A DNA stretch of 64,000 nt, taken from the IMG/VR virus record IMGVR_UViG_3300025934_000014, positions 58,116 to 122,115 of that record. One strand, written 5' to 3'. The position numbers and the translations under genes are program-made. Below the pieces are notes generated by a model that was not told where the DNA came from, made no database searches, and saw only the letters and a list, made by a program, of their open reading frames with translations. The stretch is from a virus (Duplodnaviria > Caudoviricetes). Below are positions 3,219-62,651 of the stretch, piece by piece; within the stretch, counting starts at the first letter, position 1; the number at the start of each line of letters is the position of its first letter.

Positions 3219-3743
3219 ATGTCTACACTCATGAATCCTCGCGCGATGCGCGAACGTCACGTTGTCGAAATCGACATGGGTCAGGGCCAGCACGTGCTCG
3301 CGCGGCGCGAGGACATGACGGTCATGGTCTTTGAAGGCCGCATCCCGATGCCGCTGCTGGTCGCGGTCCAGAAGATGATCGAGATGCCGGGCGCGTCCCC
3401 CACCGAACGCCTCGCCGCGCTGGGCGAAGCGCACTCCCGTGAACTGGTCGATGTCGTGCGCGAGCATGCGATCAAGGTCGTCCTCCAGCCGGTGCTCGTG
3501 GCCGAAGACGACGGCAATCCCGATCACCTTCCGGTCGGTTTACTCACGCTCCCCCAACTCATTCAAATCTGGAGCGAGACTGCCGTTGTGCCGTTGATGA
3601 CGGCGCAGACGGCGGCGGACTTTCGTGCAGGCGCACGCACCCCTGATGCTCCTGTGCTTCCAGATGGGGAAGCAGTACAACCAGCCGCCAAGCCGGTGGT
3701 GGTTCCAATCCGACCCGACATCGACGAATTCGTCCGCCTCTGA
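3219..3743 (+). CDS. tail assembly chaperone (gpG-like)
   Basis: Acidic ~170-aa ORF directly upstream of the tape measure gene, with an overlapping +1-frame ORF. Confidence 0.7.
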   Translation: MSTLMNPRAMRERHVVEIDMGQGQHVLARREDMTVMVFEGRIPMPLLVAVQKMIEMPGASPTERLAALGEAHSRELVDVVREHAIKVVLQPVLVAEDDGNPDHLPVGLLTLPQLIQIWSETAVVPLMTAQTAADFRAGARTPDAPVLPDGEAVQPAAKPVVVPIRPDIDEFVRL

Positions 3744-3888: not shown

Positions 3889-6800
3889 ATGGCCGACAAC
3901 GACGTACTCATCAAAATCGCAGCGGATGTCGCCAGTGCCGTCAAGGCACTGGAGGGCATGGTCGAGAAACTCGACGCGACCAACAAAGCGATTGCGGCGA
4001 TTGGTGATACGTCCAGCAAGGCGAAGAAGGACTCCGAGTCGCTGAGCACGTTCTTCGGCGTGCAGATGGCGAAGTCGTTCGACGCGGCGAAGGAAGCGGC
4101 GCTGGGGTTGGTCGAGAAGATTCCCGACATGGTGGGCCACGTCGCGGAACTGGGCGACTCACTCCTCGCCATGAGCCAGCGCACCGGCGTCTCCGTCGAA
4201 GGGCTGTCCGGGTTGCGGTTCGTCGCGTCACAGGCTGGCGTGTCGTTTGAGTTGCTGGGCCGCACGGTTCAGCAGATGGGGAAGGAGATCGGAGAAGGCG
4301 GGACCAACACCGTCAACGCGATTGAAGGACTGGGCCTCTCGTTCGAGGCGTTGAAGGCGCAGTCCCCCGAGCAGCAGTTCCTCGCCATCATGGACAAGCT
4401 GCACGGCATCACCGACGCGTCCGAGCGCACGCGCAAGGGCGTCGAGTTGCTGGGGCCGAAGTTCAAGATGATGTCGAACCTCGCGACGGAGGACATCGGC
4501 AAGTTGATGGAGGAGGCCAAGAAACTCGGCCTCGTCATGTCGGAGGATACGGCACGCGCCGCCGACCGGTACGGCGACTCCCTCGACCGCATCAACAAGA
4601 TGATGGAGGCGACCCGAAACGAGATCGGGGCGTCCCTTCTCGGCCCCCTGTCAGACTTCCTCGACCTCGCGCCACAAGTCAGCGGCGCATTGCTGGTAAT
4701 CGGAGACGCTGTCCTCGATGTTGGGAAGGCCGCAGGCAAGGTCTTCATCAATATGCTCCCGCAAATTGTGGACAAGCTGGGAGGCTGGAAGAAGGCGTCC
4801 GAACTCGTCAAGACGGAAACCATCGCGCTCGTCACCAAACTCTGGACACAGGTCGCGGCCACGACGGCCTTGAGCGCGGTGCAGACCGAAGCGACGGTCG
4901 CCACGAAAGCGTGGGCGGTCATACAAGGGATCGCGGCGGTCGCGACGGCAGGCGTGACGGCGGCGGTCAGGGCACTGACGGCTGCGATGCTGGCGAACCC
5001 GGTCCTCGCCATCATCGCCGGGCTGATTGCGCTGGGTGCTGCGCTCTGGGCGTTGAAGTCGCACTACAAGGGCGTCGAGGAGGAGGCTGCGAAATCTGCC
5101 AAGACCCAGATGGACGCGGGAAAGAGCGTCGTCCAGATCGAGGCCGAACTGATCCAGAAGGAGAAGGAGTATCAGGCGGCGCTGACCAGAGGCGAGGTAG
5201 TACTCGCGGCGCGGCTCGACTCGGAGATCAAGGGCGTCAAGAGCAGCGAGGACTACAAGAAGGCCATCGAGGACTACAACACCGCCATCGAGGCTGGTTT
5301 AGCGCCGGGGGCCAATCAGGCGCAGGTCACGGCGTTCCTCGCGGAGAAGCAGGCGGAAGCCACACTCGAACTCCACAAGGGCGCGGATGCTCAGGCCGAG
5401 ATTATCAAGCAGTCCGAGCACTTCAGGGACGCGCAGGACGAAGGCGCGAAAGCGTTAGAAGGCTTCTCGTACGAAACGCAGGAGCAAATCAAGTGGTTGC
5501 TCCTCGACGCCGATGCCACCAATGCCGTGGTCGCTGGCATCACCGGCATGACGGAAGCGCAAGTCCAGTCCGTCCGCACGCTCATGGCTGCGCGTGCCGA
5601 GGCTGCGGCCTTCGACGCGAAGATCGCCGCACAGCGCGAGTCGATGGGGTTGACGGGCACGAGCGCCGCGCTGGCGAATGCCAAGGCCGAGCACGATGCG
5701 GCCATCCAAGCGATCAATGACAACAAGGCGTGGAAAGATGACGCCGCCAGAAACGAAGCCATTCGGCAAGCGGATGTCACGGCCCAAGTCAAACGCGCCG
5801 AGATCCTGACGAACTCTGCGCGTACCGCCGCGCAGTCGCGCATTCAACTCGCCGCCGATGCAGAGATCGCCGCCGTCAATGCGTCCAAGAAGGGACTCGA
5901 CGCGCAACTGGCGATCATCGAGATCCGCAGGAATGCCGAGATCGCTGCTGCCAATGCCTCGGGCGATGCGGTCGGGGCCGCGATCAAGAAGCAGGAGGCC
6001 AACGCCAAGGCGCAACAGCAATCGGAGGCGGCGATCCGCGAGGAGCGGAAGAAGTCCGCCGAGGACGATCTGCGGCAACAGGCCGCGCAGCAGCAGGCGC
6101 TGATTGCCATTCGGTTAGAGGGCAACGAGAAAGAGATGGCCTTGATCAAGGCCAAGGAGGACGAGGACGAGCGCATCGCACGCGACACCATCACCGATGC
6201 CACGTCGCTGGCCGACAAGCTGACGCTAATTCACACGGACGCCGCGAACCAGCGCGTCCTCGTGACCGAGAAGGCCGCGAAGCAGGAGCGAGAGGCGGCA
6301 GCGGAAGCCGTTCGCCAGCAGAACGAGTACGAAATCAAAACGACGAAGGTCGGCATCGATCAGATCGCCGCGCTCCGGGAAATCGAGTTAGAGCGCCGAC
6401 TTGAACAGGCGCGGAAAAGCGGCGAAGACGAACAGCAGGTACGGCTGCGGTTTGAAGCGGAAACTGCCCGACTGATTGCCGAAGGCGACGACGTTACCTA
6501 CACGGGTCGGCAGAAGAAGGCCACGGCGGCGCGAAACGCCTACATCAAGGCCAACAACGATCAGAACGTCTCGGACAAAGAACGGCTCCGGTTACTGCTT
6601 GCGGCTCTTGAGGCGGAAGCGCAAGCGAGGGGCGTCGTTGCCAGAAAGACCAGTGAGTACCACGCCGCAGAAATCCTTGCAGCGGCCGTCGCCCTCGACA
6701 ACATCAAGAAGCAAACCGATGCGACCTATGAACAAGTCGAAGCCGCGCAGGATCTCCTCGACCTCAAATTACAGGAGGCGCAAGTAGACGAGGAGGCCCG

Positions 6801-9156
6801 GCGCAAACTCGCCATCGCGCAGTCGCAAGCCAAAGAAGCGCGAATGCGTGCGCACGGCGCGACTCCGAAAGAGATTGCCGACGAGCGCGGCAGGCGCGTC
6901 GGCGTCCGTGGCTACCAGACGAAGGAAGAAGCCACGCAGGCGGTCGCGGACGCCGAGCAAGCCCTCAAGGATCTTGGCAAGGACGCGTCGAAAGCCTCGC
7001 GGGATGCTGCGGAGAAGACTGTCAAGGATGCGAAGGAGGCGGCTGGACAGACCGTTACCACATGGGGCGAGGCCACGTCGTCCATCGCGGCGTCGTTCGA
7101 GCAGATGGCGAACATCGGCGGGAAATCGTTCGGGGGTATTTCCAAGGCGGTGGGCGGTGTCTTCTCCCAGATGGACTTCGCCAGTAAGAACTTGGGTGGC
7201 CTATTCGGCAAAGACGCGGTCACGGGCAAGGACAAGACGCTGTTCGGCTTGCCCGGCATGGACTCCATCGGTGGAGGGAAGCTCGCCAAGGGCATGGGTG
7301 CGGCGGCGCAAGTGGCGGGTGGCGTGCAAGCCTTCATGGCCGGGACCGACAAGCGCGGAGCCGGGCAGCGTGCGCTGGGCGGCGCGATGGCGGGTGCCCA
7401 GATCGGATCGATTGCGGGTCCGTGGGGCACGGCCATCGGTGCAGGAGTGGGCGCGATTGTCGGGGCGCTCCGGAAGCCCGGTTGGGTCAAGGCGGCGAAG
7501 GATGTCGGCCGCGACTTCGGCACCGAGATCACCGACGAACTAGCGAAAGAGGTCGAGAAGTCCGCGAAGGAGAAATTCAAGGGCGACCGGGGCGCAGGCG
7601 CACTGTTCAACCTCGACGCGATCATTGGCGAGGCGGGTGGGCTGAAGTCCGGCAACATCGACAAGTTCACGGGCAAGCTGCGCGACGTGTTCTCGATGGT
7701 GGAGACGGGCAAGTTCTCCGCCGAGCAGGGTCGCGAGACGCTGGAGAAGAACTTCGGCGCGTTCGCGGACTACATCATCAAGAGCAACAAGGTCGCCTCC
7801 AAGAGTTTCCAAGAACTCCTCACGCTGAACGCCAACTCCGCTGCGAAGTCCGAGGAGATCGTCGGGTTCGTCAGCAGCCAGAACCAGCGGCTCGCGGCTG
7901 GCCTCTCCGGATTGTTTGCGCCGCTGTCGAAACAGATTGGCGACATGACGGATGCGCGGAAGGCGCTCTCCGACGCGCAAGCCTCTGGGAAAGAGATCGA
8001 CGCCGACTCGCGGATGGTGCTTCAGCAGATGGCTGGAGACATCAAGGGCGCTGGCGAGCAGATGCAGCGGTTCGAGCGCCTGACGCTCGCCGGGTTCAAC
8101 GCGGCCGTCGCGGCGGGTGTGCCGTACCTCGACGCGCTCGACCAGATGGGTCCGGCGCTCGACCAGTTGAGCGATGCGAACACCAAGCTGGGACGCGAGG
8201 GCGGCGCGGCGATCAACGAACTCCTCGGCATCCGTGAACTCGCGAAGACCTACCCGGAACTGGTCGCCTCGGCGTCGTCGCTGAACGAAGTCACGATGGC
8301 GATGTCGAACATCGGCGCGTTGAACGTCGATACGATGGCCGACCTTCAGGCGCAGGGTGAGGAGACGTTCGGCAAGCTGGTCGAGGCTGGGTTCACCGAG
8401 ACGCAGGCGCTTCAGCAGATGAAGGGCTATCTGGAGAACGTGCGGCAGGCGCACAAAGACCTCGGGTTGCCCATTGACGAGAACACGCAACTCCTGATCA
8501 ATCAGGCCGAGCAGACCGGCGTCCTGAAGAAGGAGTCGATGTCCACCAACGAGGTGATGATGGAGGGCTTCAGCGCCATCATCAAAGCCTTGGGCGGCGA
8601 CATCCCGGCTGCGTTCACGAAGTTCAAAGATGCGGCAGCGGTGGCTGCGCAGGCGACGACGAAGTCCGTCGATCACGTCGAGGCCGCGATCAACGGCGTG
8701 GATTCCGCGCTGTCGGATACCGACTGGAGCGGCTGGTCACAGGAAGCTGTGGACGCGGCGACGGACGCGCAGGCCGCTGTCGATGCGGTGTCATTCGGTA
8801 GCTCGCCCGGTGGTATCAAGGAAATCCCGCTCAAGCTCGCCCAGTCGATGCAGGCGTTCCGCGACTGGCAGAAGGTCAGCGTCGGCGCGGCCGGTGCGGT
8901 GCGCGATGCGATTGACGCGTCCATCGGATCGACCGACGGCATCGCCTACGCCGGACAAATGAGCGGGGACGCGGCGATAGCTGCCGCTGCGGAGGCGAAG
9001 GCGCAGCAGGACATGATCTCCCTGAACGTCGCGATCAGCACCATTGACACGCAGGGGATGGAAGAAGCCGTCGAGAAGAAGATGCTCCCGGCGATCTCGA
9101 AGATTCTCCGCAAGGGCGGACGCAACCTGAGCGACATTCAGGGAGTGCTGCGCTGA
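3889..9156 (+). CDS. tape measure protein
   Basis: 1755 aa, Ala-rich helical/coiled-coil, hydrophobic ANPVLAIIAGLIALGAALW and GAQIGSIAGPWGTAIGA segments; canonical position. Confidence 0.92.
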   Translation: MADNDVLIKIAADVASAVKALEGMVEKLDATNKAIAAIGDTSSKAKKDSESLSTFFGVQMAKSFDAAKEAALGLVEKIPDMVGHVAELGDSLLAMSQRTGVSVEGLSGLRFVASQAGVSFELLGRTVQQMGKEIGEGGTNTVNAIEGLGLSFEALKAQSPEQQFLAIMDKLHGITDASERTRKGVELLGPKFKMMSNLATEDIGKLMEEAKKLGLVMSEDTARAADRYGDSLDRINKMMEATRNEIGASLLGPLSDFLDLAPQVSGALLVIGDAVLDVGKAAGKVFINMLPQIVDKLGGWKKASELVKTETIALVTKLWTQVAATTALSAVQTEATVATKAWAVIQGIAAVATAGVTAAVRALTAAMLANPVLAIIAGLIALGAALWALKSHYKGVEEEAAKSAKTQMDAGKSVVQIEAELIQKEKEYQAALTRGEVVLAARLDSEIKGVKSSEDYKKAIEDYNTAIEAGLAPGANQAQVTAFLAEKQAEATLELHKGADAQAEIIKQSEHFRDAQDEGAKALEGFSYETQEQIKWLLLDADATNAVVAGITGMTEAQVQSVRTLMAARAEAAAFDAKIAAQRESMGLTGTSAALANAKAEHDAAIQAINDNKAWKDDAARNEAIRQADVTAQVKRAEILTNSARTAAQSRIQLAADAEIAAVNASKKGLDAQLAIIEIRRNAEIAAANASGDAVGAAIKKQEANAKAQQQSEAAIREERKKSAEDDLRQQAAQQQALIAIRLEGNEKEMALIKAKEDEDERIARDTITDATSLADKLTLIHTDAANQRVLVTEKAAKQEREAAAEAVRQQNEYEIKTTKVGIDQIAALREIELERRLEQARKSGEDEQQVRLRFEAETARLIAEGDDVTYTGRQKKATAARNAYIKANNDQNVSDKERLRLLLAALEAEAQARGVVARKTSEYHAAEILAAAVALDNIKKQTDATYEQVEAAQDLLDLKLQEAQVDEEARRKLAIAQSQAKEARMRAHGATPKEIADERGRRVGVRGYQTKEEATQAVADAEQALKDLGKDASKASRDAAEKTVKDAKEAAGQTVTTWGEATSSIAASFEQMANIGGKSFGGISKAVGGVFSQMDFASKNLGGLFGKDAVTGKDKTLFGLPGMDSIGGGKLAKGMGAAAQVAGGVQAFMAGTDKRGAGQRALGGAMAGAQIGSIAGPWGTAIGAGVGAIVGALRKPGWVKAAKDVGRDFGTEITDELAKEVEKSAKEKFKGDRGAGALFNLDAIIGEAGGLKSGNIDKFTGKLRDVFSMVETGKFSAEQGRETLEKNFGAFADYIIKSNKVASKSFQELLTLNANSAAKSEEIVGFVSSQNQRLAAGLSGLFAPLSKQIGDMTDARKALSDAQASGKEIDADSRMVLQQMAGDIKGAGEQMQRFERLTLAGFNAAVAAGVPYLDALDQMGPALDQLSDANTKLGREGGAAINELLGIRELAKTYPELVASASSLNEVTMAMSNIGALNVDTMADLQAQGEETFGKLVEAGFTETQALQQMKGYLENVRQAHKDLGLPIDENTQLLINQAEQTGVLKKESMSTNEVMMEGFSAIIKALGGDIPAAFTKFKDAAAVAAQATTKSVDHVEAAINGVDSALSDTDWSGWSQEAVDAATDAQAAVDAVSFGSSPGGIKEIPLKLAQSMQAFRDWQKVSVGAAGAVRDAIDASIGSTDGIAYAGQMSGDAAIAAAAEAKAQQDMISLNVAISTIDTQGMEEAVEKKMLPAISKILRKGGRNLSDIQGVLR

Positions 9157-16796: not shown

Positions 16797-18905
16797 ATGT
16801 CGCTGCTGCACCCGCGCTTCTTCATCAAGAACTGGCAGTATCTGCCGCCGACCGGTCTGGGTGCGGCCCAGATCGCGGTGCTGCCTGCTGGTACGTCCTC
16901 GATTCGCCTGACATGGACGAACCGACGGCCGGAGTACTACACCAACATCTGGTTCAGCAACGGGCAGTACATCAACTTCGTGGGTCCGGGCGTTACGACG
17001 TACGACGTGATCGGGCTGGCTCCGAATACCAGCTACAGCTTCTACGTGACCCACAGCGACGGACAGGGTCGCTACCTATCAAAGCCGTCGAACATCGCCT
17101 CGGCGGCAACACAGATTGCTTTCAATCCGCCGACCAGCGTGACGGCGACCCAGCGCGGCGATCTCCCGGCTGGCACGTCCACGATTCGCCTGACGTGGGC
17201 GAACGCGCAGGCGGGTGATCCGATTGAGGTGTTTCGCGACGAAGCCTACGTCGGGCTGCTGGGGCCGGGGACAACGGCGTGGGATGACACCGGCCTCGCG
17301 CCGAGCAGCACGCATTCGTACTTCCTGCGGCACTACCGCTCGACGGCCAGTGGTGCGTACGACACGCCGAACTCCAATCGGACCAGCGCCTCGACGCAGG
17401 AGAAATTCGATGCCCCGTACGGCCTGACGATCAGCAACGTCCTCTCCTATCCGGCTGGTACGTCGCAGTTGGCGCTGAACTGGGGTAATGCTCAAGCTGG
17501 CGATCAGATTCAGATTTACCGCTACCAGAATTCGTGGAATTACCTGACGACGGTTCCGGCGGGGACCACGTCCTACGTGGACAGCGGCCTCGCGCCGGGT
17601 ACGTATTACTACTACTACCTCGTTCACATCAGGAACGGTTACACGTCGGGATTGATTCAGGCTGGACCCGTCTCGACGCACGCACCGATGCCGTCGCCGG
17701 TGAACGCCTTTGTCTCGAATGTCGGCCCGTCCTCGATGAATCTGAACTGGACGAACGGGTCCGGCTCAGACACCGTCCGTGTGTGGATCTCCGTCGCTGG
17801 TGGTGGCTTCACGCCGTACGACTACGGTGCAGGGACGGCGGGACTGGCGTTCACGGGCCTCTCGGCTGGCACCAGCTACACGTTTGCCGTGCGGCATGTC
17901 CGTTACGGCACGGAGTCCACCGATCCGCCCGGTCAGTCGAACTGGGTCGGCACGACGACGCCGTTCCCGGCTCCGGCCGCGCCGTACAACCTGCAAGTCG
18001 GCGTGCCGCACGATCAGGCACTGATCGTGTACTGGGCGAACGGTGACGGCGGGGCGCAGACCGAGGTGTACCTCAATGGTGGCGGTGTTGCGACGGTTGG
18101 ACCGGGCGTCACGCAGTACCAGATTAACGGCCTGACGCGCTGTACGAACTACACGATTCAGTTGCGTGCCCTGAAGAACGGTGTGTACTCCGGCTTCGTC
18201 AGCATCGTCGGGCGACCGCGCATGTACGTTTCCGGCGGCTACGCGCAGAACGACGGGGCGACCGAGTATCACTGGTACTATCAAGGCGAGTTCGACATCA
18301 CGCTGCAAGTCCCCGGACAGATCAACTACTCCGGCTTCGGGGCCGGTGGGTACGGTGGGCAGGGCAGTCCCGATGACGGCGTGTCGAATACAGGTGGCGG
18401 CGGCGGTGGCAGCGGCGGCGCGTTTCTCCAGTACGACAACGTCGAACCGAATGGCACCTACCACGTGGTCACGGGGTGGCTGGGTTACGCGGGTGCGACC
18501 ACCTACCGCGACGACATCGCCTTCAACGGTGGCTGGGGCGAGTGGGGACTCAACGAGCGCGGCGGCAACGGCAGCTATTCTGGCGGCGGCGCGGGGAGCG
18601 CCTATCCGCAGTACGGCGGCGGCGCAGGGTTTCCCGGTGGGCCGAATAACAGTTGCGGTGGCGGTGGCGGTGGTGGCGCACGTGGCGGCGGTGCCAGTTC
18701 GCAAAGCGGTGTCGGTGCGCCGGGCGGCGGCGGCTTCGGGTTGCCGATCTTTGGCAATGTTGGGTTCGGTGGACAAGGTGGCCGTGGTCCGGGGTCCGGG
18801 GCGAATGCGACCTACTGGGGGTCCGCTGGTGCGGGTGGTGGCCCTGATGGCGGCGGCGGCGGCGGGGCGACGAACGGTGGCTTTATGGTGTGGTTCCCGA
18901 TTTAA
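16797..18905 (+). CDS. fibronectin type III repeat protein (about 5 repeats) with Gly-rich C-terminus
   Basis: Repeats PAGTS(S/T/Q)(I/L)xLxW...GLAP; C-terminus paralogous to 9978..12617. Confidence 0.75.
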   Translation: MSLLHPRFFIKNWQYLPPTGLGAAQIAVLPAGTSSIRLTWTNRRPEYYTNIWFSNGQYINFVGPGVTTYDVIGLAPNTSYSFYVTHSDGQGRYLSKPSNIASAATQIAFNPPTSVTATQRGDLPAGTSTIRLTWANAQAGDPIEVFRDEAYVGLLGPGTTAWDDTGLAPSSTHSYFLRHYRSTASGAYDTPNSNRTSASTQEKFDAPYGLTISNVLSYPAGTSQLALNWGNAQAGDQIQIYRYQNSWNYLTTVPAGTTSYVDSGLAPGTYYYYYLVHIRNGYTSGLIQAGPVSTHAPMPSPVNAFVSNVGPSSMNLNWTNGSGSDTVRVWISVAGGGFTPYDYGAGTAGLAFTGLSAGTSYTFAVRHVRYGTESTDPPGQSNWVGTTTPFPAPAAPYNLQVGVPHDQALIVYWANGDGGAQTEVYLNGGGVATVGPGVTQYQINGLTRCTNYTIQLRALKNGVYSGFVSIVGRPRMYVSGGYAQNDGATEYHWYYQGEFDITLQVPGQINYSGFGAGGYGGQGSPDDGVSNTGGGGGGSGGAFLQYDNVEPNGTYHVVTGWLGYAGATTYRDDIAFNGGWGEWGLNERGGNGSYSGGGAGSAYPQYGGGAGFPGGPNNSCGGGGGGGARGGGASSQSGVGAPGGGGFGLPIFGNVGFGGQGGRGPGSGANATYWGSAGAGGGPDGGGGGGATNGGFMVWFPI

Positions 18906-20375: not shown

Positions 20376-20404
20376 TAGACATTATCAATCGCCTGTGCCA
20401 CGCT
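20376..20404 (+). promoter_or_regulatory. putative promoter for the pentamer array / RAMP gene unit
   Basis: TAGACA-17 bp-CACGCT immediately before the first array unit; weak -10. Confidence 0.4.
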
Positions 20405-20635
20405 GGCGAGCCGGGGCCGGGTAAGGATAGGCGGGGCACGGTTTGCTTCGGTCTGGTGGGGTTAGGTGAGGCCGGGCATGGCGAGGCATGGCTTGGTTTG
20501 GCGAGGCAGGGCTTGACATGGTGCGGTGAGGCAGGGTTGGGTTGTGTCGGGCACGGTAGGTGTCGGGTCGGGCACGGTTGGGTCCGGCGAGGCATGGTGT
20601 GGCCGGGTTCGGTTCGGCCGGGTAGGGTACGGTTT
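20405..20635 (+). repeat. GGY-NN pentamer array 1 (46 units), candidate guide ncRNA
   Basis: Parses as GGCGA GCCGG GGCCG GGTAA GGATA GGCGG GGCAC GGTTT...: 31 in-register units, a 1-nt slip at 20560, then 15 units. Confidence 0.9.
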
Positions 20636-20667
20636 TCTATTACGACGACGAAGGCGGAGACGACGGA

Positions 20668-21282
20668 ATGACAACAGCAACAGCAATTGGGCCAGTCACG
20701 AACGGTGCGCTGGCGACTCTCAAGTTTGAACTCCCATACGTGGCGAGCGTGAGACTGGTCGGCGTGGCCGACATCCTGTTCCACCGGTGGAACGTGGAAG
20801 GGGTTGCATCGAAGGCGCTCGCGAAGAAGGGATCGGCAGCGAAGAAGACCGACGACATCGAGAGCTATGTCTATCGCAACGACGCCGAGGAAATCTGCAT
20901 CCCCGGTGAGTACGTGCGGCAGGCGATCATCAACGCGGCGAAGTACCGTCCGGACCCGCGCAGCCCTCGCAAGTCTGCGATGGACCTGTTCAAGGCAGGC
21001 GTCGTCTCACTCACGGACCTCGCCTCGACGGGCGTCACGAAGTGGGACTTTGAAGACAAGCGGCGCGTGCAGGTTCAGCGTGCAGGTATCACGCGTGTGC
21101 GTCCGGCGCTGAAGCAGGGGTGGGCGATTCAGGTCGAACTGCTGGTGAATCTGCCGGAGTACATCGCGCCTGCGGATCTGCTTGAAGTGATCGTCAACGC
21201 GGGTCGCCTGATCGGACTGGGCGACTTCCGGCCGACGTACGGTCGGTTCTCAGTCGTCAGTTTCGAGTGCCTTCAGGGCTGA
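20668..21282 (+). CDS. stand-alone RAMP/Cas7-like RNA-binding protein
   Basis: N-terminal strand VRLVGVADILFH, YRND..EICIPGEYVRQAI helix motif, TRVRP...W, and C-terminal Gly-rich loop GRLIGLGDFRPTYGRF; GGAGACGACGGA-ATG start. Confidence 0.8.
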   Translation: MTTATAIGPVTNGALATLKFELPYVASVRLVGVADILFHRWNVEGVASKALAKKGSAAKKTDDIESYVYRNDAEEICIPGEYVRQAIINAAKYRPDPRSPRKSAMDLFKAGVVSLTDLASTGVTKWDFEDKRRVQVQRAGITRVRPALKQGWAIQVELLVNLPEYIAPADLLEVIVNAGRLIGLGDFRPTYGRFSVVSFECLQG

Positions 21283-21900
21283 GTGCGGTGGGCCTTGGTC
21301 GGGTTTGGCGGGGCGAGGCATGGTTTGGCTCGCTCTGGTCAGGCTGGGCAAGGCGAGGCGAGGTCGGGTGAGATACGGCTTGGTGCGGCCTGCCTTGGCG
21401 AGGTCGGGCGTGGCGAGGTCCGGTGGGGTTGTGTCTGTCCGGGTGTGGCGAGGCGTGGCGTGGCACGGTCAGGCACGGTGAGGCACGGTCTGGCTGGGCG
21501 AGGTTAGGCGAGGCCGGGCGCGGTTCGGTATGGCGCGGCAGGCTCTACGGCGCGGTGCTTCAGGCACGGCGCGGCAGGTTCTGCCGTGAGGTCTGGTTGG
21601 GCGGGGTTCGGCGTGGCGAGGCTGGCTACGGCCCGGTCAGGCGCGGTGCGGTTTGGTCAGGCATTGGCGCGGCACGGCAAGGTCAGGTTAGGTCGGGTTT
21701 GGCGAGGCATGGCTGGGGCGTGGCAGGGCGTGGCATTGGCGAGGCGTGATGTTGGTCGGGCTTGGTGAGGCAAGGTCCGGTTTGCCAAGGTCAGGCGTCG
21801 GTCGGGTTTGGTAGTGTCAGGCTAGGCAAGGCAGCGGCTTGGCGCGGCGCGGCTCGCTACGGCGTGGATTGGTTTGCCCCGGCGCGGTATGGCGTGGTCT
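21277..21900 (+). repeat. GGY-NN pentamer array 2 (about 115-120 units in two blocks), candidate guide ncRNA
   Basis: 53 in-register pentamers 21277-21541, hairpin-containing break 21542-21589, 61 pentamers with six 1-nt insertions 21590-21900. Confidence 0.9.
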
Positions 21901-21928
21901 TGACATCGCCGTCGATTGGCATTACCAT
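21900..21928 (+). promoter_or_regulatory. sigma70-type phage promoter
   Basis: TTGACA-17-TACCAT. Confidence 0.75.
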
Positions 21929-21966: not shown

Positions 21967-22209
21967 ATGAACGCAGAGATTCCTACCCCTGAACAGGTCG
22001 CAGCGGATGCACGACAGGTCGTGCTCGCGGATGTCTATACCGGGCTTCGCATGGGCGGCTACACCTTCATTAGCGCATTGAAGGCGTTGCGCATCCTCGG
22101 CCTCTCGCTGGCCGAAGCGAAGGCCGTCGCGGACCAGTGCGATGCCCAGCGCGTGGCGATGCAGCAGTTGGCCGTGCTCGAACACTTCCAGTCTGCGGTG
22201 GCGCATTGA
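21967..22209 (+). CDS. hypothetical protein
   Basis: GGAGGCGACG-ATG start downstream of promoter. Confidence 0.6.
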   Translation: MNAEIPTPEQVAADARQVVLADVYTGLRMGGYTFISALKALRILGLSLAEAKAVADQCDAQRVAMQQLAVLEHFQSAVAH

Positions 22210-57938: not shown

Positions 57939-58172
57939 ATGGCGACGATGACGACGACGGCGGCTCAGGATCTGGCGCAGGCGCTCGCGGCCTGCACGGG
58001 CGCGGTGCGGGTGACGGTGACGGACGGCCCGGTGATGGCCACGGCGGTGCCGAAGCCGACGCGGGTGAAGATCGGCGTGGTCTGCTTGGAGTGTGGCAAG
58101 CGGTGGAAGGTCGGCCCGAACGCCTCGCCTGAGTGTCCGAAGTGCGGCGGCACGGACTTCGACGTGCGCTGA
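57939..58172 (+). CDS. zinc-ribbon protein
   Basis: CLECG...CPKCGGTD. Confidence 0.6.
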   Translation: MATMTTTAAQDLAQALAACTGAVRVTVTDGPVMATAVPKPTRVKIGVVCLECGKRWKVGPNASPECPKCGGTDFDVR

Positions 58173-61069: not shown

Positions 61070-61392
61070 TGAATTACTTCCTCCGGTGAGAGTCCTTCAG
61101 GACTGATGCCACCGGCGGGTGCGGTTGAGGTGATGACGATGACGGCGACGACGGCGACGACCTTTTGCCCCCGGTGCGGGGGCGCTCCCTTCTGTTTGAC
61201 CACGTGTCCGGCCTCGACGGCCAGCGAGCGGTACTGGCAGCGTACGGCGTATCAGGCGCGGCTGATGCTGGCGCTCGTTCACACCGCCGAGCAACGCGCC
61301 TACTACAGCGGACGGCTCGCGCAGGCTGAGGCCGCACTGGCTCCGGCGCTCGCACGCGCCGCATAAGTGGAACAGTGATAATGTGACCGCGC

Positions 61393-62049
61393 ATGGCGGT
61401 CACGCTGCAACAGGATCCGAACAACGCCAACAAGGGCACCGTACGCGGAGCCGCCCTCCTGAAAGCCTCCCTCCTCGTCTGCGGCGCTGGCCGCTCCATC
61501 TTCACCGACAAGCACGGCACCGTCCTCGGCGGCAATAAGACGCTGGCGACCGCGCAGGCGCTTGGGATTCCCACGGAGTGCATCGAGACGGATGGTCACG
61601 AACTGGTCGTGGTGCAGCGGACGGACTTGGACCTTGCGGTCGATGCGACAGCGCGGCAACTCGCGTACTACGACAACCGCACCCACGAACTCGATCTCGC
61701 GTGGGACCGGGCACAGGTCGCGGCCGACGTACTGGCAGGCGTCGATGTCGGCGCGGCGTTCTTCCCGAAGGAACTGACGGCGCTGAAGGTGACGCCCGGC
61801 GCGTCGAAGGTGGAGCCGCCGGTGCTCGACCTCCCGCAGACGGATGGCGGCGCGATGCCACCGCAGGACGGAGCAGGTATATATACCGCTCCGCCTGCGG
61901 CGACTCCGACGGTCCCGGTGCTGCGGATCACGTTGACGTTCGCGACCCTCGATGAGCACGCCCGGTGGCAGGCGTTCATGGACGCGCTCGCGGCCCGGTA
62001 TCCAGAGGAGACGACGGAGACGGCGCTGCTGGCCCGACACCTGTCATGA
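61393..62049 (+). CDS. ParB-like N-terminal domain protein 1
   Basis: DPNNANKGT.RG..LL..SL...GAGRSI..D.....GGNKT, YDNR..E. Confidence 0.7.
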   Translation: MAVTLQQDPNNANKGTVRGAALLKASLLVCGAGRSIFTDKHGTVLGGNKTLATAQALGIPTECIETDGHELVVVQRTDLDLAVDATARQLAYYDNRTHELDLAWDRAQVAADVLAGVDVGAAFFPKELTALKVTPGASKVEPPVLDLPQTDGGAMPPQDGAGIYTAPPAATPTVPVLRITLTFATLDEHARWQAFMDALAARYPEETTETALLARHLS

Positions 62050-62651
62050 AGACGCTGGAGAAGCTGGAGGACTGCACCCCGGACATCGCGAACGCGAACG
62101 CCGGGACGCTGCGCGGCGAGCAACTCCTTGAGCACTCGCTGACGAAGTACGGCGCGGCCCGGTCCATCGTCGTGGACAAGTACGGCCGCTGCATCGGTGG
62201 GAACAAGACCCTGCAACTCGCCATCGAGGCCGGGCTGGGGATGCGCGTCGTGCAGACGGACGGCAAAACGCTGGTGGTGGTCGTGCGCACGGACCTTGAC
62301 CTTGCGACGGACCCGCAGGCGCGGGTGCTCGCGTACCTCGACAATCGGGCGGCGGAACTGGGCCTTGCGTGGAACGTCGAGCAACTGGAAGCGGACCTTG
62401 AGAAGGGGCTACAACTCGGGTCGATGTTCACGGAGCGCGAGATCGAGCGCATGCTCGCGGCGCTCGACGCGGATGGTGTCACACTGCCGCTGACGGTGAC
62501 GGTCGCGTTCCCGGCGGCGCTCCATGCGGCGTGGCACGCGGCCGTGCTGGCGATGCCGGGGGCGGTGTGGGGCGAGCAGTTGGACGCGTGGCTGGCGGCG
62601 CAGATGACGACACTGGCAACCCCGACGGCGACGACGACGGAGGCGGGATGA
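62046..62651 (+). CDS. ParB-like N-terminal domain protein 2 (tandem paralog)
   Basis: D.ANANAGT.RG..LL..SL..YGAARSIVVD.....GGNKT, LDNR.AE. Confidence 0.7.
   Translation: MKTLEKLEDCTPDIANANAGTLRGEQLLEHSLTKYGAARSIVVDKYGRCIGGNKTLQLAIEAGLGMRVVQTDGKTLVVVVRTDLDLATDPQARVLAYLDNRAAELGLAWNVEQLEADLEKGLQLGSMFTEREIERMLAALDADGVTLPLTVTVAFPAALHAAWHAAVLAMPGAVWGEQLDAWLAAQMTTLATPTATTTEAG

Follow-up and report, generated by a model that had tools for sequence, protein, structure and literature searches.

A probable VIPR locus with two long GGYNN arrays in an uncultivated 122-kb phage genome

The 64,000-nt stretch analysed here (the window; positions 58,116 to 122,115 of IMG/VR record IMGVR_UViG_3300025934_000014) very probably contains, at 20405–21900, a Viral Interference Programmable Repeat (VIPR) locus belonging to a 122-kb uncultivated phage genome. 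This reading comes from sequence comparison and a structural model. A gene for a predicted minimal RAMP protein, vipr, lies between two arrays of five-base GGYNN units, and at least two guides of the second array match genes of other phage-like elements within their coding sequence, the skipped target bases falling at codon wobble positions. The record is a single virus contig of 122,115 bp (JGI 3300009176), with a G+C (guanine plus cytosine) content of 65% and nearly all genes on one strand. In window coordinates, the locus consists of:

20405–20640, plus strand: vrRNA array 1, about 47 GGYNN units in 236 nt, presumably with room for about three guide RNAs.
20668–21282, plus strand: vipr, encoding a 204-aa predicted minimal RAMP/Cas7-like RNA-binding protein.
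21287–21900, plus strand: vrRNA array 2, about 123 GGYNN units in 614 nt, presumably with room for about eight guide RNAs.

VIPR systems were first described in 2026 and comprise the Vipr protein, a minimal RAMP, together with vrRNAs made of 9–16 YNNGG repeats and an invariable 3' tail; the NN of the vrRNA pairs with the DNA target, one target base being skipped for every two paired (10.64898/2026.04.26.720920). They repress transcription, are mostly phage-encoded and fall into seven types. An accessory gene, vap, is 'typically' present, with six vap families for the seven types, and is not treated as obligatory; no self-targeting was reported, the match cut-off being 80% (10.64898/2026.04.26.720920). 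Structures of VIPR, including PDB 36pp, have been obtained by cryogenic electron microscopy (10.64898/2026.04.26.720927). According to a later report, VIPR decides the competition between phages and satellites, with solo vrRNAs aimed at rival vipr genes and standalone vrRNAs that redirect the VIPR machinery of a rival (10.64898/2026.10.15.759431). From metagenomes, 99 clusters of VIPR-like arrays have been described (10.64898/2026.10.21.760802). The original prediction for this stretch, made from the nucleotides alone, had mentioned phage systems of a 'VIPR' type, and the name is that of this real class, published in 2026.

The pentamer arrays are the most conspicuous part of the locus. The period-5 power of GG, computed in 200-nt windows, was 4.9–6.8 in both vipr flanks and did not exceed 0.72 elsewhere in the 64 kb; the equivalent minus-strand signal (CC) was absent from the same analysis. 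Within the window, the GGYNN 5-nt periodicity is unique to the two vipr flanks. The arrays were segmented by dynamic programming, with array 1 parsed over a wider stretch (20376–20667); five-base units with a GG start numbered 41 in that wider stretch, and 98 units of array 2 start with GG. The third position was C or T in 134 of the 139 GG units of both arrays, while all four bases were in use at positions 4 and 5. Since a period of 5 cannot be coding, the open reading frames (ORFs) listed within the array tracts are artefacts. No higher-order repeat was found in the arrays, where Tandem Repeats Finder (TRF) retrieved only short stretches of period 5, 10 or 20. The picture of a 204-aa ORF (20668–21282) flanked by same-strand tracts of 5-nt period was thereby borne out, and the predicted count of about 160 GGY-NN units, devoid of higher-order repeats, was correct. 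The NN string read from array 1 in that prediction also held, except for the exact placement of a +1 slip that this array carries near 20560. Array 1 ends with GGTAG GGTAC GGTTT T, directly 5' of the ribosome-binding site of vipr, and its size is close to three times about 15.7 units. In the 3' half of array 2, six +1 register shifts appear as 6-nt units (at 21660, 21716, 21732, 21748, 21794 and 21830), and several of the chains there are very short (3–9 units).

By homology and predicted fold, the 204-aa product is a Vipr-family RAMP protein. Searched with phmmer against PDB sequences, it retrieved the SUSP1 Vipr protein (36pp_D, E 7.9e-8, residues 126–197), and BLASTP against the SUSP1 gene gave 39% identity over 70 aa. 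A profile built from 22 homologs aligned with SUSP1 Vipr over 139 columns (hhalign probability 97.5%, E 6e-12). The protein has no family in Pfam; in PHROGs it corresponds to phrog_4652 (function not known; E 3e-18). The AlphaFold2 model reached a predicted local distance difference test score (pLDDT) of 73 and a predicted template-modelling score (pTM) of 0.70, and its top PDB matches in Foldseek were all Csm3/Cas7 proteins (type III-A, type VII and Cas7-11; E 2e-5, template-modelling score about 0.5), in agreement with the RAMP/Cas7-like protein first proposed. The glycine-rich loop that had been pointed out as a RAMP hallmark, GLGDFRPTYGRF, aligns with the SUSP1 G-loop GVGDWRPRFGRF, the site of GGY-binding residues. 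In SUSP1, GGY is held by R138, D177, W178, R179 and E71, whereas K82 and K88 contact the non-target strand (10.64898/2026.04.26.720927). SUSP1 E71, K82, K88, R138, D177, W178 and R179 align with E81, K92, R98, R145, D186, F187 and R188, respectively; six of these seven residues are invariant in the 22 homologs and F187 is kept in at least 90% of them. The changes of W178 to F and of K88 to R are conservative substitutions. The Vipr family is large, with 7,328 proteins at E ≤0.001 in 90% clusters and 1,156 clusters at 50% identity.

Two guides of array 2 could be decoded:

21585–21649, plus strand: guide against gpI, 13 units with NN values GA CT TG GG TC GT GA TG AC CC CA GC GC.
21826–21890, plus strand: guide against a ParB-like gene, 13 units with NN values AG GC TT GC GC TC AC GT TT TT CC GC AT.

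The predicted target of the first is the gene for a Mu-like gpI head-maturation protease (PF10123, E 6e-74; phrog_328), on the sense strand, at the codons ALWGSVEWTPHGA and with the skips on the wobble position. The match covers 24/26 NN positions in contigs L095 and L096 and in a contig of a metagenome-assembled genome (MAG; G001:C18:14456), and is weaker in seven related contigs. The three units 3' of this guide (GGTTT GGTCA GGCAT) are mostly unpaired. The second guide is predicted to target phage ParB-like genes (phrog_620) on the antisense strand, at the codons IAGNKTV[DE]AA[KN]A[LI] and again with the skips on wobble, matching at 26/26 NN in L092 (50% GC) and 25/26 in L087 (67% GC). These two target sites agree at the NN positions and differ at the skipped ones. 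A nine-unit pattern of this guide had 10 viral matches, two of which extended (L092 and L087), whereas none of the 13 matches of an eight-unit pattern used as a chance control (21467–21506) did so. This guide starts two units ahead of a +1 slip; these two units (GCAAG GCAGC), read in the register shifted by +1, use bases that also close the chain before it. In both decoded guides, 13 paired units are followed by two or three mostly unpaired units and then by a +1 slip or the array end. The NN dinucleotides had been proposed to spell a non-contiguous guide against competing phages; the matches with a 1-nt skip support this proposal, with the correction that the gap is in the target (NNx).

The MAG contig carrying the gpI target is 197 kb long, its MAG is labelled 'delta proteobacterium', and the gpI gene stands beside major-head, tail and baseplate genes. 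In this element (G001:C18:14066-30000; L177, L178), gpI comes first, followed by the major-head, tail and baseplate genes. Peptidase, glycosyltransferase and DNA ligase genes lie directly upstream of gpI, no portal or terminase was seen, and the related IMG/VR contigs likewise start at gpI. Instead of a full Mu-like phage, this could be a defective prophage, a satellite or an element of the tailocin kind.

A third, weak candidate guide was found in array 1:

20546–20610, plus strand: 13 units, in the register that follows the +1 slip at 20560.

It matches at 21/26 NN in L095, L096, L103, L109 and G001:C18:17836, in a gene 3.4 kb downstream of the gpI gene. The match is unproven, its score being within noise and the skipped base falling on codon position 2 instead of wobble. 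A 21/26 match in L101, whose protease is 85% identical to that of this phage, was also judged to be noise.

The arrangement is shared by related phages. Among 80 IMG/VR loci with a related gene, 78 have same-strand GGNNN arrays adjoining vipr, in many cases on either side of it and reaching 1.5 kb in length; such arrays are also present in the closest relative, L001 (84% identical protein), and in phage DSL-LC04 (59%). The array sequences of the relatives have nothing in common with those of this locus. The 5-nt periodicity that had been proposed as a check on homologs was present at nearly all of these loci. An all-against-all guide search was carried out among the fetched loci, using six-unit seeds, extension, skips of 0, 1, 2 or 3 bases and unique pairs with a score of at least 16. 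A 1-nt skip gave 111 extended guide–target pairs, compared with 3 for no skip, 18 for a skip of two bases and 8 for one of three; the pairs spanned 8–14 units. In terms of these sequence matches, the published one-base-skip rule holds in this clade. Decoding the NN strings under several spacings, as the original prediction had suggested, thus found phage genes far better with one skipped base than with any other spacing. Many of the pairs fall within the vipr genes of other phages, as for guides L047:3124, L042:2890 and L042:3670. Register shifts in the clade are mostly +1 (51/69). Single arrays, the smallest in size, cluster at 12–16 units and the larger ones lie near multiples thereof.

No close relative was found in the GenBank phage collection, where the nearest Vipr is that of DSL-LC04, at 59% identity. 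In this phage (L002; OR003939.1: 22429-23046), the Vipr homolog is annotated as a 'helix-turn-helix transcriptional regulator', which is almost certainly a mis-annotation. No neighbour gene of vipr recurs among the relatives.

The phage carries homologs of both targeted genes. Its ParB-like genes are:

61390–61788 and 62064–62453, plus strand: tandem ParB-like paralogs, 42–50% identical, in the aligned part, to the targeted genes.

The corresponding sites in these paralogs (61524, LGGNKTLATAQA; 62192, IGGNKTLQLAIE) match guide 21826–21890 at 20/26 and 17/26, and the site in its own gpI-like protease matches guide 21585–21649 at 17/26; all three scores are below the 80% cut-off used in 10.64898/2026.04.26.720920. 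These sites are mismatched because the amino acids differ: LWAEVEWTPKG in the protease, against LWGSVEWTPHG in the target, and LGGNKTLATAQ and IGGNKTLQLAI in the ParB-like proteins, against IAGNKTVEAAK in the target. Across the 122-kb genome, no guide window rose above background in a search for self-targets.

These observations bear on the idea that a VIPR-type ribonucleoprotein mainly regulates the phage's own genes or those of its host, for example as a switch between late and early timing. The locus is placed exactly at the border of the structural and replication modules, between tail-fibre genes and genes for an AAA ATPase, an HNH protein and SSB; with targets known for two of about 11 guides, most could aim elsewhere. 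One guide also matches, at 23/30 (77%), a putative host gene of the MAG, glucan-phosphorylase-like and named by motif alone. However, this match is at noise level, the two clear targets lie in other phage-like elements while the phage's own homologs are mismatched, and neither this genome nor the published systems show self-targeting. We consider own or host regulation improbable as the main role.

The phage itself may be under attack from a rival. Two sites for foreign guides were found within its vipr gene:

20847–20882, minus strand: rival-guide site 1, codons KKTDDIESYVYRN, matched by L042:2890 (12 units) at 20/24 NN, with the skips on wobble.
21144–21176, minus strand: rival-guide site 2, codons VNLPEYIAPA, matched by L042:3670 at 18/22 NN, with the skips on wobble.

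Guide L042:2890 also has matches within vipr at 11 or more further loci. Since the L042 guides match this vipr gene, the phage is a predicted target of the VIPR system of a rival. In L042/L043 (IMGVR_UViG_3300009012_000009), the two guides (2890–2949 and 3670–3724) are found one per array, and they match conserved vipr codons of more than 20 other loci of the clade, this one included. From these matches, the pair looks like dedicated anti-VIPR weaponry. Matches of rival guides L075, L047 and L070 to this genome outside vipr were judged to be noise.

Guides against rival vipr genes being common in the clade, part of the arrays described here might consist of decoys or anti-VIPR sponges that soak up or redirect the Vipr proteins of rivals. 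Standalone vrRNAs that redirect a rival VIPR are described in 10.64898/2026.10.15.759431, the arrays are unusually long, and the chains of 3–9 units in the 3' half of array 2 are also consistent with this idea. Nevertheless, the vipr gene between the arrays is intact and conserved, both decoded guides are directed at ordinary genes, essential or for maintenance, and not at decoy sites, and no guide here exceeded background against 80 rival vipr loci, so that a sponge role has, in our estimate, very little probability. Finally, slippage can generate G-rich repeats, and such repeats can adopt G-quadruplex structures. Even so, there is a negligible probability that the tracts have no function or are repeats at the DNA level only (degenerate microsatellite, G-quadruplex DNA or iterons), with the ORF simply lying beside them, given hypervariable positions 4–5 behind a fixed GGY, which are not a slippage product, arrays on the strand of the gene in nearly all relatives despite wholly different sequences, and NN strings that match foreign coding sequence in codon register under one spacing rule only.

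Under the preferred reading, a VIPR locus directed at competitors, the mechanism would follow that of the SUSP1 and Pseudomonas fulva systems, and we infer its steps from 10.64898/2026.04.26.720920, 10.64898/2026.04.26.720927 and 10.64898/2026.10.15.759431. Transcripts of the arrays would be processed into about 11 guide RNAs, each of about 15 units, and one Vipr protomer per unit would hold GGY and present NN. By the published rule, N4N5 of the guide would pair with NN of the target and the next target base would be skipped. The Vipr filament would then bind the double-stranded target DNA and block transcription of the competitor's gene, presumably with no nuclease involved.

In its composition, the locus resembles the type II VIPR of Escherichia phage SUSP1 and of the P. 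fulva prophage (10.64898/2026.04.26.720920). They have in common a small Vipr protein (about 200 aa) in which the G-loop (GDxRP..GRF) and a thumb arginine are conserved, same-strand GGYNN repeats both upstream and downstream of the gene, a one-base skip that falls on the codon wobble position on either DNA strand, and targets in other mobile elements, including rival vipr genes; they are also phage-encoded and without a nuclease. On the other hand, the protein can be aligned with that of SUSP1 over its C-terminal two thirds only, and no vap1-like gene is present. In SUSP1, the vrRNAs are individual RNAs of about 100 nt that carry a leader and a pseudoknotted tail of 40 nt apiece, and the units number about 55 in all, whereas the present locus has continuous unit runs of 236 and 614 nt, amounting to about 170 units, with +1 slips, degenerate units and one hairpin. 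The +1-shifted overlapping units at 21826–21835 may recall the 'staggered vrRNA arrays' named in passing in 10.64898/2026.04.26.720920.

More distant parallels are found in two other RNA-guided systems. Vipr shares with Cas7/Csm3 of class 1 CRISPR-Cas an RRM/RAMP fold that includes a thumb and a glycine-rich loop, and in either case the protein polymerises on a guide RNA at a fixed period (6 nt in CRISPR, 5 nt in VIPR). Unlike Cas7/Csm3, it goes with a non-contiguous guide, consists of a single RRM domain and shares only 10–15% sequence identity. TRF found no CRISPR-like repeat–spacer array in the window, as originally stated, no cas1/2/3/5/6/8/10 gene was noted there, and no Cas family of Pfam or PHROGs was detected in the ten neighbouring gene products tested, the rest of the window not being scanned. 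TIGR-Tas is likewise a phage-associated RNA-guided system with short tandem guide arrays. It differs in its Nop-domain protein, its dual-spacer unit and its period of 18/36 nt, and is unrelated to Vipr and GGYNN.

Several findings weigh against the preferred reading. In Vipr, SUSP1 W178 is replaced by F and M72 by Y, H17 is not alignable, and the positions of K33 and R39 are likewise uncertain; the structural model itself is of medium confidence. No vap gene was found, and none of the genes downstream of vipr in L001, DSL-LC04 and SUSP1 has a homolog anywhere in this 122-kb genome. A counterpart of the SUSP1 structured tail or pseudoknot of about 40 nt was not found at the locus. Only two of about 11 presumed guides were decoded, and three other guide patterns gave nothing or chance-level matches: the exact-pattern scan with guide 20566–20610 retrieved no match, guide 21666–21710 had one AT-rich match that did not extend, and guide 21656–21705, searched in metagenomes, had one match that did not extend.

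Three further features lie within array 2 or at its end:

21542–21590, plus strand: irregular stretch, the sole one in array 2, predicted to form a long imperfect hairpin.
21891–21900, plus strand: terminal units GGCGT GGTCT, which pair with neither decoded target and are a candidate 3' tail built of pentamers.
21900–21928, plus strand: sigma-70-like promoter by consensus match alone (TTGACA, 17 nt, TACCAT), at the end of array 2.

The fold of 21520–21600 has a free energy of -39.8 kcal/mol (z = -2.55), and none of 200 shuffled sequences was equally stable. From this predicted structure, the hairpin could act as a tail or as a signal for termination or processing; an Rfam search of the arrays and the hairpin found no hammerhead and no other family. 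The terminal units resemble the array ends of relatives, such as GGCAT GGCGT GGCTT T and GGCAT GGCAT GGTCT T. The candidate promoter is positioned for the next gene (about 21967–22209). Guide ends in the clade would seem to be marked by two or three non-pairing units, often with a +1 shift, and not by a structured tail of 40 nt. As guide boundaries, degenerate units that lack GG (GCYNN, TGTC) were tried and rejected, since they are paired with targets inside validated guides and the runs between them have roughly geometric lengths. GGCAT was tried as a universal terminator. It is about 1.8-fold enriched in the clade, but 'AT' occurs at chance frequency here, and it was rejected because boundaries at 'AT' would give guides of 3 to 38 units in this locus.

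Considering these points together, we tentatively suggest, as a possibility on the doubtful side of even, that the clade, which is large and for the most part metagenomic, has a stripped-down form of VIPR. It would consist of one protein, with neither accessory gene nor structured tail, and of about 11 overlapping head-to-tail guides whose ends are GGCAT/GGCGT-like units plus a register shift. These guides would be aimed at codons where the core genes of rivals (head protease, ParB-like and vipr) differ from the phage's own.

Some further observations concern the genome. The protein encoded just upstream of the locus (16797–18905; 702 aa), probably a tail fibre or decoration protein, contains a fibronectin type III domain and is very rich in glycine over its C-terminal third. 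In JGI contig L084 (122,114 bp), the gene lies at about 118.8 kb, compared with 78.8 kb in the record used, and the two are rotations of each other, pointing to a complete genome that is either circular or circularly permuted. Further contigs of this phage, L099 and L100, stop short of the VIPR locus. About 51 kb before the window start, at approximately 6527–7217 of the genome, the motif GAGCGAGCC occurs 13 times, mostly at a spacing of 35–40 nt. These repeats would fit a candidate TIGR-Tas-like array; if this were true, the phage would carry two different RNA-guided systems.

VIPR is not a new kind of system, having been described in 2026, and the novelty of the locus is limited for that reason: it adds little in kind and something in detail. 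It was recognised from raw sequence alone, as a member of a class published only in 2026, and it places VIPR in a 122-kb high-GC metagenomic phage far from the Escherichia coli and Pseudomonas models. Its guide set, of about 170 units, ranks among the larger ones, and there is no accessory gene. The locus is of value because targets could be decoded, because vipr genes of environmental phages are matched by one another's guides, and because the arrays are packed, with neither tails nor a vap gene. From the two readable guide–target pairs, a Mu-like head-protease gene and the ParB-like genes of rivals are predicted to be silenced, and the gpI target in the MAG hints at the host lineage of the phage. 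The guides that phages of this clade appear to direct against one another's vipr genes would extend the idea of VIPR against VIPR to environmental phages. If the stripped-down form is real, self would be told from kin by amino-acid differences, synonymous change being ignored.

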